Virus record (IMG/VR): IMGVR_UViG_2663762849_000002
DNA length: 7,927 bases
From: a virus
Lineage: Monodnaviria > Loebvirae > Hofneiviricota > Faserviricetes > Tubulavirales
Direction: 5' to 3' (one strand)
A program made the translations under genes and the position numbers. Positions 815 through 7,814 of this stretch are shown piece after piece. Positions within the stretch are counted from its first letter, which is position 1. Each line of letters starts with the position of its first letter. Below the pieces are notes generated by a model. That model did no database searches and was not told where the DNA came from. It saw nothing but the letters and a program-made list of their open reading frames with translations.

Positions 815-2929
<2,115 letters not shown>

Positions 2930-2962
2930 TTAAACTAAGCCAAAAGAACAGGAGAACAAAAA

Positions 2963-3151
2963 ATGAGCAGGAAAAGTATTGGTATAAGCAACGAGAGATA
3001 TCTGAGAATAGAAAGAGCAGCCGTAGATATCACAGCCAAAACAGGAAAAGTCACAAAATGGTCGGAGATCGTGAATTATCTGATAGATGAATATTTAAAC
3101 GATGCAAAACAAGATATGATTTCGAAAAATGAAATTACACAAAAAAAATAG
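2963..3151 (+). CDS. small DNA-binding regulator, 62 aa, probably ribbon-helix-helix
   Basis: SD AGGAGA 2950-2955, 7 nt before ATG 2963. KSIGISNERYLRIERAAVDITAKTGKVTKWSEIVNYLIDEY fits a beta-strand/helix/helix RHH pattern. Divergent from Rep across the repeat array, as rstR is from rstA in CTXphi. Confidence 0.6.
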   Translation: MSRKSIGISNERYLRIERAAVDITAKTGKVTKWSEIVNYLIDEYLNDAKQDMISKNEITQKK

Positions 3152-3242
3152 TAATCACAAAACGATTTGGCGATTGCTAGAAGAGCAAAAAGTACCACCC
3201 GTGGTACAAAAGTGCAGTATTACATGATTGCTAAAAAGCAAT

Positions 3243-3398
3243 ATGCAGACAACCAGTGACTTAATTCTTGACCTGCTGATAAAGCATTTTGTTGTTGGCA
3301 GCATCACAGGCATGACAATATTCAGCCTGATAACGCTTGTCCTACCGTTGGTGATGACCATACACAACAAACTAAGTAAGGACACTGAAATCCTTTAA
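3243..3398 (+). CDS. possible small hydrophobic membrane peptide, 51 aa
   Basis: ATG 3243 to TAA 3396-3398, below the 60-aa cutoff of the ORF track. MQTTSDLILDLLIKHFVVGSITGMTIFSLITLVLPLVMTIHNKLSKDTEIL has one predicted TM helix. Weak SD; preceded by perfect palindrome gtaccac-cc-gtggtac (3192-3207) and followed by the terminator at 3432-3468. Confidence 0.25.
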   Translation: MQTTSDLILDLLIKHFVVGSITGMTIFSLITLVLPLVMTIHNKLSKDTEIL

Positions 3399-3431
3399 GG
3401 TTCAGTGCGCACAATGACGTTATGTATAAAA

Positions 3432-3468
3432 AGGCCGCTGCGGTGGAGAGTATCGCAGCGGCCTTTTC
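3432..3468. terminator. bidirectional rho-independent terminator
   Basis: Perfect 11-bp stem aggccgctgcg / cgcagcggcct with 11-nt loop, flanked by aaaaa (3427-3431) and tttt (3465-3468), so it reads as stem plus U-run on both strands. Confidence 0.75.
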
Positions 3469-3550
3469 AACATAACGCGTGTCACATTATGCGCACTGAC
3501 GTTGTGGTAGGTAAACTGAGATGCCGCGTCCTGATAATCCCGGTCGGCAC

Positions 3551-4125
<575 letters not shown>

Positions 4126-4182
4126 GTTAATCAATCTCATCATGTTATACCGTTAAGTGCTGTTTTTCAGTCATGAAGATAT

Positions 4183-4916
<734 letters not shown>

Positions 4917-4929
4917 AGTGTCCTCTGTC

Positions 4930-6144
<1,215 letters not shown>

Positions 6145-6157
6145 TTACCCCGCAAAA

Positions 6158-6517
6158 TTACTTGCCAACATTAAGCCCATTTGATTTAAATAAATCATAA
6201 ACCAATCGATACACTCTATCCTTATAAAGATATATGTATGAAATAAATTGAACATGGAGGATGATATTAAAGCAGTACTGAATATTTAAAGGCAGGTAAC
6301 TGAATGCAACTACAATAACATCGAGTTTATTAACATCGGAGATTTGACGAATAATAAAATTGACGGCAGATACAAGAGCATAATATGAAGTGTAGCAAAG
6401 ACCAAGATAAGAAAGGAGCTTAGCCCATGCAACAGCTTTATCACCGATAACTCCTGCAATGAAACGTAGTGATTTTAAAACAACATCAACAAAAAAAGCA
6501 CCTAAAATGGCCCACAT
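6158..6517 (-). CDS. pVI-like minor coat protein, 119 aa
   Basis: Hydrophobic multi-helix protein between pIII and pI, the position and size of Ff pVI (112 aa). Start ATG overlaps the pIII stop (TGATG), suggesting translational coupling. Sequence similarity to M13 pVI is weak. Confidence 0.7.
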   Translation of the reverse strand: MWAILGAFFVDVVLKSLRFIAGVIGDKAVAWAKLLSYLGLCYTSYYALVSAVNFIIRQISDVNKLDVIVVAFSYLPLNIQYCFNIILHVQFISYIYLYKDRVYRLVYDLFKSNGLNVGK

Positions 6518-7794
6518 CAGAGTTTTACCTCACGTTCAAATAATGTACGGCGAGAAATAACAAAAACGCGTAACATGGTTATCATATAAATAGCATATTC
6601 AAGAACAGAACGAACATAATCGTCATAAGCTTTTGCAAAATGGCTTGTATCAATCTTGAAATTAATCGCGCCAATCAACGGAAGATTAAAGCTAAACTGT
6701 AAAGTAAAAGGAAGAGCAGTTCCATTATTTGTATTTACCAGTTTGTCAATATTAACTGTAAGCCAATTGTTATTATCATGACTCTCACTTCCCTGTCCTG
6801 GCAAATAATGCGAAAGCTCCCCTAAAGGGAAATCCCCATCAGGCAAAGAAGAAGCTATATTCTGACTAATATCTTTAATACCATTGTCCAGTGAATTTAA
6901 TGCATTATTCATATCAGCCTGAGAAACAGAAAAAGCATTATTTAAATCATTCACTGACACCCATATTGTTTTTAACCAGCCCAAAATACCATCAAGCCAG
7001 CCATTGTCATCGCCGGATGAGCCACCGGATCCTGAACCTGAACTACCGCTACCGGATGAACCGCCGGAGCCCGAGCCGGAGCCACCGCTACCGGATGAAC
7101 CACCGGAGCCAGAACCTGAACCACCACCGGAACTGCCGCCGCCTGGGTTACCACCACCGGAACTGCCACCACCTGAGCTACCGCCATCCTCCTTACCATC
7201 GGAGAATGCAGGATCTACAGCAACTGGTTTCCAGTCGGCAGTACAAACTGTATCATCATCGGGATTACAAATAAGAGGATTACCGGTTGCCTCATAAATA
7301 CACCCCTGCACATTAACATAACGGGTCCCGTCATCACCTTTATAAACATCAGAAAAAGTCATACCATCAAGAACCGGACGAGAAAGACAAATCTCGTCAG
7401 TTGGCGGCTTATTATATTCAGGTGTCAAATCCCCCTCACCACCCTGAAAAGCAAGGGAGCAGGCTGTCCACTTTTGCTTGTCTGAATCCCAGACTTTATA
7501 TGCTGACCACCGGGCACGGACAAAAGACCCGACAGTCGAAGGTGCATTAACAGGCGTTGAAAGTGGCACACCACAATAATGAATTATTCCGGAACATGCG
7601 TCATAACTGCCCGAACCACAGAAAAGATGACCGGACGCCCTGGCTAATTTAATCGACGTCCCCGCGTCCGAATAATCTGTCCTGCAGGATGAATGGCCTG
7701 CACACTGAACAAGTGCATCCGGATTTTCTTTCTCTTCAGCGAAAGAAAACGAGGAAAAGAACAAAAACAGAAGCGGAATAATAAAGTGAATCAA
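6517..7794 (-). CDS. pIII-like adsorption/attachment protein
   Basis: Signal peptide (M)IHFIIPLLFLFFSSFSFA, Cys-rich N-terminal domains, long Gly/Ser linker, C-terminal membrane anchor. The frame is open to GTG 7803 but the AGGAG SD at 7807..7803 overlaps that codon, so TTG 7794..7792 (8-nt spacer) is taken as the start. Confidence 0.85.
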   Translation of the reverse strand: MIHFIIPLLFLFFSSFSFAEEKENPDALVQCAGHSSCRTDYSDAGTSIKLARASGHLFCGSGSYDACSGIIHYCGVPLSTPVNAPSTVGSFVRARWSAYKVWDSDKQKWTACSLAFQGGEGDLTPEYNKPPTDEICLSRPVLDGMTFSDVYKGDDGTRYVNVQGCIYEATGNPLICNPDDDTVCTADWKPVAVDPAFSDGKEDGGSSGGGSSGGGNPGGGSSGGGSGSGSGGSSGSGGSGSGSGGSSGSGSSGSGSGGSSGDDNGWLDGILGWLKTIWVSVNDLNNAFSVSQADMNNALNSLDNGIKDISQNIASSLPDGDFPLGELSHYLPGQGSESHDNNNWLTVNIDKLVNTNNGTALPFTLQFSFNLPLIGAINFKIDTSHFAKAYDDYVRSVLEYAIYMITMLRVFVISRRTLFEREVKL

Positions 7795-7814
7795 ACAAAA
7801 CACTCCTGGTATGA

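Follow-up and report, generated by a model that had tools for sequence, protein, structure and literature searches.

The window, a stretch of 7,927 nucleotides (7.9 kb), corresponds to one unit of an E. coli prophage of the filamentous (inovirus) type, and a small ORF next to its attachment site is very probably a genuine translated gene. The ORF encodes a 51-aa peptide with the features of a single-pass inner-membrane protein. The explanation that best covers the observations as a whole, with a probability of about 0.4, is that this inner-membrane gene is the last gene of a lysogeny unit that borders attP, with superinfection exclusion as its likeliest role. The existence of a real single-TM peptide downstream of a regulator, as an earlier note on this DNA had proposed, is supported because the reading frame is intact and constrained across four alleles. 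The family of the peptide is uncharacterised and narrow in distribution, lies within a known kind of protein, and matches no described family.

The prophage and its lysogeny-side unit

The minus strand of the window carries a gpA-like Rep, small structural ORFs, g3p-like and g6p-like genes, Zot/pI and the remains of a secretin. The plus-strand unit diverges from the rep gene. Four genes of the prophage are listed here with their positions.

2914..815, minus strand: replication endonuclease, gpA-like, 699 aa
2963..3151, plus strand: putative repressor-like gene, 62 aa, opens the plus-strand (lysogeny-side) unit and runs divergently from the endonuclease gene
6141..4930, minus strand: Zot/pI assembly ATPase
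7803..6517, minus strand: g3p-like adsorption protein

The region around the small ORF is 99.4-100% identical to the chromosomes of three E. coli isolates from human stool, where the prophage is present as tandem copies. Related genomes show the prophage integrated at dif, adjoining hipA. The Rep is only ~30% identical to the Reps of Vibrio phages VFJ and fs2 and to CTXphi RstA, and blastn of the region against the GenBank phage collection gave no DNA match; the phage of the window is therefore uncharacterised.

In the E. coli locus with 99.4% identity, the 62-aa gene carries the annotation hypothetical protein. Its product matches phrog_2503, a group of unknown function (E 1.1e-28). The AF2 model has an extended N-terminus and two helices, compatible with a ribbon-helix-helix protein, and a Foldseek comparison of this model with the PDB gave no significant fold match. 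We infer that the gene is a regulator from its position and from the operator-like repeats at 2842-2920. The placement of the small ORF downstream of a regulator and on the same strand thus holds for position and strand, but the word regulator describes where the gene lies and has no counterpart in its phrog_2503 match or in a known fold. No plus-strand terminator was found between the two genes, and for this reason the small ORF would be co-transcribed with the 62-aa gene. It would then be the last gene of the repressor-side (lysogeny) transcription unit, wedged against attP. The two genes are co-oriented and divergent from rep, which is the arrangement of a CTXphi-like repressor-side unit.

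The divergent intergenic region between rep and the putative regulator contains repeated and inverted TGCAATTGTGCA-type motifs at 2842-2920. These motifs are likely operators of the immunity switch.

The small ORF and its product

The earlier note had reported a 51-aa hydrophobic ORF on the plus strand at 3243-3398, and it is present as described. The ORF and the two features immediately upstream of it are as follows.

3192..3207: inverted repeat GTACCAC-cc-GTGGTAC, 7-bp arms with a 2-nt spacer, probably incidental
3223..3245, plus strand: RNA hairpin CAUGAUUGCU-AAAA-AGCAAUAUG, which pairs the start codon (-6.3 kcal/mol, z -2.6)
3243..3398, plus strand: small membrane-protein gene, 51 aa, allele A, with ATG at 3243 and TAA at 3396-3398

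The product of the ORF is MQTTSDLILDLLIKHFVVGSITGMTIFSLITLVLPLVMTIHNKLSKDTEIL. An ORF listing stretches the frame upstream to a TTG at 3228 (56 aa). We set the start at ATG 3243, since this codon aligns with the start codons of all other alleles. In allele A, the uncharged span comprises residues 15-42, that is, 28 residues between K14 and K43. The best 19-mer has a mean Kyte-Doolittle value of 2.13, and Lys and Arg are commoner on the C-side of the core. The AF2 model is one continuous helix from residue 2 to residue 50 with a pLDDT of 87, so the single TM segment that had been read from the sequence is borne out. The other alleles share this character: across all of them the uncharged core measures 24-28 residues and the best 19-mer reaches a mean of 2.1-2.6. 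A hydrophobic segment of at least 19 residues, charged flanks and a helical model are what is found in a generic single-pass small inner-membrane protein. Each allele encodes one long helix, and the positive-inside rule, applied to the K/R-richer C-side, predicts an N-out/C-in orientation.

The product has three parts: an N-terminal amphipathic segment with the motif (I/V)(L/M)DLL(I/M)K(H/Y), a TM helix that contains G19xxxG23 and P35, and a C-tail that is short, polar and richer in K/R. In an alignment of eight sequences D10, K14, G23 and P35 are invariant, and the N-terminal motif and G19 are largely conserved. In P0012, a variant that is more distant, Val replaces D10.

Translation initiation differs among copies. 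The window copy has no Shine-Dalgarno sequence, and its AUG is paired in the hairpin at 3223-3245, from which initiation in this copy appears to be weak or regulated. The weak ribosome-binding site that had been noticed earlier is therefore a true property of the window copy, and GAGG or AAGGGG is present in other copies. The ATTGCT/AGCAAT stem is kept with variable loops in four loci (L004-L007). L008 and L024-L027 lack this stem and have GAGG or AAGG in its place. Upstream of allele B the sequence is AAGGGG or GAGGGG, and some allele-A copies have GAGG or AAGG.

The upstream inverted repeat had been described as a perfect 16-bp palindrome. An inverted repeat does lie at 3192-3207, but its two 7-bp arms are separated by a spacer, it is as frequent as expected by chance, and it is not conserved. 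Repeats of this quality number five in the window versus 3.2 +/- 2.0 in random sequences. The repeat is absent in 9 of the 12 allele-A genomes, where homology starts at window position 3226. The hairpin it can form is weak (-7.1 kcal/mol, z -2.0; another fold gives -6.8 kcal/mol), and, read on the minus strand, it resembles a weak terminator, with TTTTT after the hairpin. A role as an operator or terminator linked to the ORF was rejected on the grounds of chance frequency and lack of conservation.

A short direct repeat, GATTGCTAGAAG (3172-3183) and GATTGCTAAAAAG (3225-3237), brackets the 53-bp segment that bears the palindrome. In other prophages a single copy of the GATTGCTAGAAG/GATTGCTAAAAAG-type repeat abuts the ORF. 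The bracketing here and the single copy elsewhere suggest that the segment may be an insertion or recombination scar at a module boundary.

Evidence for a translated gene

The pattern of substitution argues for translation of the plus-strand frame. Between alleles the synonymous sites are saturated (pS 0.7-0.9) and pN is 0.3-0.5, and in every divergent pair the differences at the codon positions are ordered 2 < 1 < 3. The two sublineages of allele A, A and A2, have a pS of 0.208 and a pN of 0.032 over codons 1-41, with seven of nine differences at third positions; the ten-residue tail of allele A evolves freely between them. In all eight divergent pairs the replacements have a higher mean BLOSUM62 score when read in the sense frame than when read in the antisense frame that shares its wobble position. 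The pS and pN values and the conservative replacements in the sense frame point to protein-level purifying selection across the homologues. The earlier note had made the fate of the frame in homologous regions decisive for its proposal, and in every homologous filamentous prophage examined, with four alleles among them, the frame is unbroken and constrained at the protein level.

All four alleles also have an open antisense frame that shares the wobble position, with a pN/pS similar to that of the sense frame. The dN/dS ratio alone cannot pick the strand because of the shared wobble position, and it was rejected as a strand discriminator. The choice of strand rests on the conservativeness of the replacements, the order of the codon positions, the aligned starts, the Shine-Dalgarno sequences of other alleles and the TM architecture.

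It is very improbable that the region is non-coding on the plus strand, with its conservation due to a DNA or RNA element that acts in cis beside attP, or to the antisense ORF at 3385..3155 (76 aa). Such a reading can draw on the open antisense frame with a pN/pS as low as that of the sense frame, on the lack of a Shine-Dalgarno sequence in the window copy, and on annotation, since PGAP misses alleles A and C in RefSeq and, in one plasmid record with allele D, annotates a CDS on the antisense strand instead. However, an open wobble-sharing antisense frame is expected, by inference from the codon table, opposite a hydrophobic ORF that is poor in Tyr, His and Gln. In every divergent pair, the sense frame is favoured by its more conservative replacements and by the ranking of codon position 2 below position 1. 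Neither the start nor the end of the antisense ORFs is conserved, and these ORFs lie behind a bidirectional hairpin, with no promoter found for them. Synonymous saturation together with a retained TM architecture is unlike a nucleic-acid element.

The attP hairpin

Directly 3' of the ORF lies a long imperfect hairpin, the parts of which are as follows.

3402..3499: long imperfect hairpin with two inverted dif-like sites, CTXphi-type attP, 98 nt
3404-3414, plus strand: XerC-like arm AGTGCGCACAA, at the base of the hairpin
3420-3430, plus strand: XerD-like arm, in the middle of the hairpin
3429..3467: GC-rich apical stem-loop of the hairpin, 17-bp stem with 14-nt perfect arms
3465-3475, minus strand: XerD-like arm, in the middle of the hairpin
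3487-3497, minus strand: XerC-like arm AGTGCGCATAA, at the base of the hairpin

The DNA fold of 3402-3499 has an energy of -36.8 kcal/mol (z -8.45). The arms match the half-sites of E. coli dif with 1-3 mismatches, and the two central regions are unequal, 5 and 11 nt. In four genomes (L004, L007, L008 and L012) the prophage ends in ACATTATGCGCAC at the right-hand XerC-like arm, adjoining hipA, which begins within ~150 bp of the prophage end. The dif site of E. coli lies in this place. Judged by its sequence, with paired inverted dif-like sites and integration at dif, 3402-3499 is a CTXphi-type attP.

CTXphi attP(+) consists of two inverted dif-like sites in a forked hairpin, which XerCD integrates at the host dif (Val et al. 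2005; reviewed in PMC3089051). The attP of the window resembles it in its paired XerC/XerD arms, its unpaired central region, its integration at dif and its location by repressor-side genes. It differs in sequence and spacing, with ~34 nt between the XerD-like arms that are filled by the GC-rich apical stem. CTXphi infects Vibrio, whereas the host of the window phage is E. coli.

The earlier note had taken the structure downstream of the ORF for a strong terminator. A very stable stem is indeed present at 3429-3467, but it is primarily the apex of the 98-nt dif-like attP hairpin, it is followed by few U residues, and a terminator scan did not call it. On the plus strand the stem has an energy of -30.1 kcal/mol (z -7.9) and is followed by UUUUC (four U); on the minus strand the energy is -28.1 kcal/mol and UUUUUAUAC follows (five U). 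Since the stem separates the plus-strand unit from the convergent secretin gene, it may act as a bidirectional transcription stop between this unit and the convergent minus-strand assembly genes. An Rfam search of 2700-3700 gave sub-threshold hairpin noise only. Reading the supposed terminator as a CTXphi-like attP hairpin helps to delimit prophages of this kind.

Alleles and distribution of the family

The family consists of four diverged alleles of 46-57 aa, which align with common start and stop positions. Allele A (51 aa) occurs in 12 of 5,426 complete E. coli genomes, and the ORF is intact in all 12. Allele B (57 aa) occurs in 22 genomes, including ETEC E24377A, and is annotated by PGAP as the hypothetical protein WP_001409659.1. 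Allele C (46 aa) is present, unannotated, in ~16 genomes. Allele D (50 aa, GTG start) is intact in an IS-flanked remnant on nine IncF plasmids, from which the dif-like hairpin has been lost. In plasmid p14EC033c the allele D fragment (L017 5020-5172) stands without the rest of the phage, and it has 77% nucleotide identity to allele C. The earlier description of the ORF as unannotated is accurate for allele A in RefSeq E. coli genomes, with a diverged allele annotated. Intact copies are also found in 13 IMG/VR contigs and in several metagenome contigs.

Every family member found comes from a dif-integrating filamentous prophage of E. coli or from the remnant of one. Protein searches, both word-indexed and exhaustive, recover a small family only, and an exhaustive profile search of 1.84 billion representatives returned the family's own three clusters and no distant relatives. 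Among GTDB species-representative genomes there were 175 pattern matches, none of which was confirmed, and tblastn of the peptide against the GenBank phage collection gave no match. Comparison of all alleles with Pfam, PHROG, NCBIfam and PADLOC gave nothing above threshold. A sequence search of the PDB with the family profile gave chance TM matches only. Annotation routinely misses small membrane proteins, and this small family, with alleles A and C unannotated in RefSeq, is carried by ~1% of complete E. coli genomes, many of them from human stool isolates. The peptide fits the generic class of prophage accessory small membrane proteins.

A variable slot between the putative regulator and attP

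The stretch from the 62-aa gene to attP is a variable cargo slot among the relatives of the window phage. In L002 the slot holds a signal-peptide protein with a TolA C-terminal domain, followed by allele B. In L003 it holds the TolA-like gene alone, and the small ORF is deleted. Because of this deletion, the ORF is dispensable rather than essential. Phages with an RstA-like Rep have allele B or C alone in the slot, and lineages with a II/X-type Rep have a DUF2971 or STM4504-family protein. The peptide alleles occur in shuffled combinations with the types of Rep and regulator, and the 5' end of the ORF coincides with recombination break-points. The 3' side is constant: the same dif-like hairpin lies directly 3' of the ORF across phages with different replication and immunity modules, and in prophage copies with an intact 3' flank the stop codon is 5-14 nt before the first XerC-like arm. 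The small ORF has the behaviour of a dispensable accessory module that is mobile and stays linked to attP.

Small ORFs in a comparable position are known from other inoviruses of E. coli. The h3-h5 ORFs of UPphi901 and the accessory genes of Ypfphi/CUS-1 are oriented in reverse by dif (PMC7307601). Like the window ORF, they belong to dif-integrating filamentous prophages of enterobacteria, are small, have no assigned function, run opposite to the core genes next to dif/attP and are variably present. UPphi is IKe-like with a gene II/X-type Rep, whereas the window phage has a gpA-like endonuclease, and the likeness described here is one of position. The II/X-Rep loci that we examined carry the DUF2971 and STM4504-family cargo instead of the small ORF.

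A ~120-nt C/G-rich element in AT-rich surroundings lies upstream of alleles B and C (L002 5770-5880, L009 300-480 and L019 110-230) and is absent upstream of allele A in the window. An origin, a packaging signal and an RNA are possibilities for it.

The TolA-like protein has 121 aa (L002 5372-5737 and L003 5372-5737; Pfam TolA E 2.4e-13). In Ff-type entry g3p uses TolA domain III as its co-receptor, and TolQ and TolR are needed as well (PMC10424213). Given this part played by domain III, a secreted mimic of it looks like an exclusion decoy, and the secreted TolA-C protein is, by its sequence, a candidate decoy that would meet the g3p of incoming filamentous phages in the periplasm. A literature search found no description of such a TolA-C decoy.

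Possible functions of the peptide

Among the roles considered, superinfection exclusion is placed first, ahead of the alternatives, and is put forward tentatively by analogy. From the window copy the peptide would be translated at a low level as part of the lysogeny unit, and it would insert N-out/C-in into the inner membrane. The conserved GxxxG/Pro face of its helix would bind another membrane protein. As an accessory protein expressed in the lysogen, it would guard the cell against further infection by filamentous phages, by disturbing their entry at the membrane, for example at the step that depends on TolQRA. The position of the ORF in the accessory slot on the lysogeny side fits such a role, as does the neighbouring secreted protein with a TolA C-terminal domain in relatives. 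The shuffling of alleles against the regulator and Rep types counts against it, being compatible with hitch-hiking cargo as much as with a specific exclusion function. Searches of Pfam, PHROG, NCBIfam, PADLOC and the PDB gave no homology to any known exclusion protein.

The closest precedent is PfsE (PA0721) of the Pseudomonas phages Pf4 and Pf5, which brings about superinfection exclusion by binding the inner-membrane protein PilC, needed for receptor function (PMC8764522). PfsE has 30 residues with an aromatic YAWGW motif, suppresses type IV pili and confers resistance to Pf infection (PMC8764522). Like the window peptide, it is a very small hydrophobic protein of an inovirus prophage. However, PfsE is encoded in the core block of structural genes, whereas the window peptide is encoded on the opposite strand, in the repressor-side unit by attP. 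The window peptide has 51 aa, none of its alleles has YAWGW or a Trp-rich motif, and it has no sequence similarity to PfsE; the host and the likely receptor system also differ. By length and by lack of the YAWGW motif, it is not a member of the PfsE family at the sequence level. If the peptide controls superinfection or the physiology of the host envelope, it would join PfsE as a second illustration of how polylysogeny is managed by filamentous prophages. Within Enterobacteriaceae it would be the first, and it would provide a handle on the Tol-dependent entry step. If it has no phenotype, it is an ordinary hypothetical cargo gene.

An extension of the exclusion proposal, which is speculative and rather unlikely, is that the slot between repressor and attP is a dedicated anti-superinfection cassette against Tol-dependent entry, built from two interchangeable parts. 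One part, the secreted mimic of TolA domain III in L002 and L003, would titrate the incoming g3p in the periplasm. The other, the GxxxG TM peptide, would dock on the TM bundle of TolQ-TolR-TolA or on phage pI/pXI and block DNA import. Such a cassette, if real, would mean a new family and a new exclusion mechanism in filamentous phages of enterobacteria.

The peptide could instead be a modulator in lysogenic conversion, which binds a host inner-membrane protein unrelated to phage entry (a sensor kinase, a transporter or an efflux pump) and alters physiology to the benefit of the prophage. MgrB, AcrZ and SafA are regulatory small membrane proteins, and the peptide has the architecture of this group: one TM helix that bears a conserved GxxxG/Pro face, joined to a tail that varies. 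The placement of the ORF in an accessory slot by attP agrees with this as well. However, searches of Pfam, NCBIfam and the PDB gave no homology to such proteins, and the family is confined to one group of inovirus prophages. We regard this role as unlikely, next in rank after superinfection exclusion.

The size and hydrophobicity of the peptide had led the earlier note to think of small membrane toxins or superinfection-exclusion peptides. A type I-like, abortive-infection or addiction peptide would depolarise the membrane if over-produced, and the occluded start would keep it silent. Type I toxins such as Hok, Fst, TisB, Ldr and Ibs are, like the window ORF product, shorter than 60 aa with a single hydrophobic helix and a poorly accessible start, the latter seen in the window copy as a missing Shine-Dalgarno sequence and a paired AUG. 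The ORF differs from them in having no profile match above threshold and no mRNA fold-back architecture conserved across alleles. The NCBIfam toxin profiles gave no match for alleles A, C and D, and Pfam gave none. Allele B matches the Fst model with E 0.039 and 13.8 bits, below the cut-off of 26, and this match covers the hydrophobic stretch only. Rfam gave no match. A consensus scan of 3200-3480, which a weak promoter could escape, found no minus-strand promoter-like site, and the sole minus-strand feature over or beside the ORF is the unconserved weak terminator-like hairpin. Other alleles and copies have a good Shine-Dalgarno sequence and no visible partner, and the ORF persists intact in IS-riddled plasmid remnants. 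The peptide is not recognisable from its sequence as a type I toxin, and a toxin function of any of these kinds is quite unlikely.

A part in the virion or its assembly is less likely still. The peptide would then resemble the Pf3 coat, which has no signal peptide, with an acidic N-terminus outside, a hydrophobic core and a basic C-terminus inside, and would be carried in particles or would aid assembly near the packaging/attP hairpin. Allele B, with its acidic N-segment and very basic tail of 9 K/R, does look like an inovirus coat protein, and the gene abuts a large hairpin. In coat proteins of this type a conserved basic tail contacts the ssDNA. The charge of the tail is not conserved in the peptide family, though: the net charge of the C-segment is +9 in allele B but 0 in A, +2 in C and +1 in D. 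The ORF lies inside the repressor-side unit, on the strand opposite to all structural and assembly genes and outside the gIII/gVI/gI-strand structural block. Upstream of g3p the phage already has its own small structural ORFs (46, 56 and 80 aa), and the deletion in L003 also counts against a structural role. A holin was rejected, because inoviruses do not lyse their host and no lysis genes are present.

State of the window prophage

The secretin (pIV/GspD-like) gene is internally deleted in the window copy (3554-4143 and 4182-4916), where residues 1-56 and 359-402 are all that remain. A tandem repeat of 145 bp (3687-4128) has residues 1-56 in three copies, and another, of 339 bp x 2.2, fills the intergenic region up to the Zot gene. 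The prophage unit of the window is probably unable to export virions on its own. A 9,613-bp 'plasmid' record from an E. coli assembly, NZ_AP045060.1, carries allele B and the attP hairpin and probably represents a related filamentous phage in its episomal replicative form.
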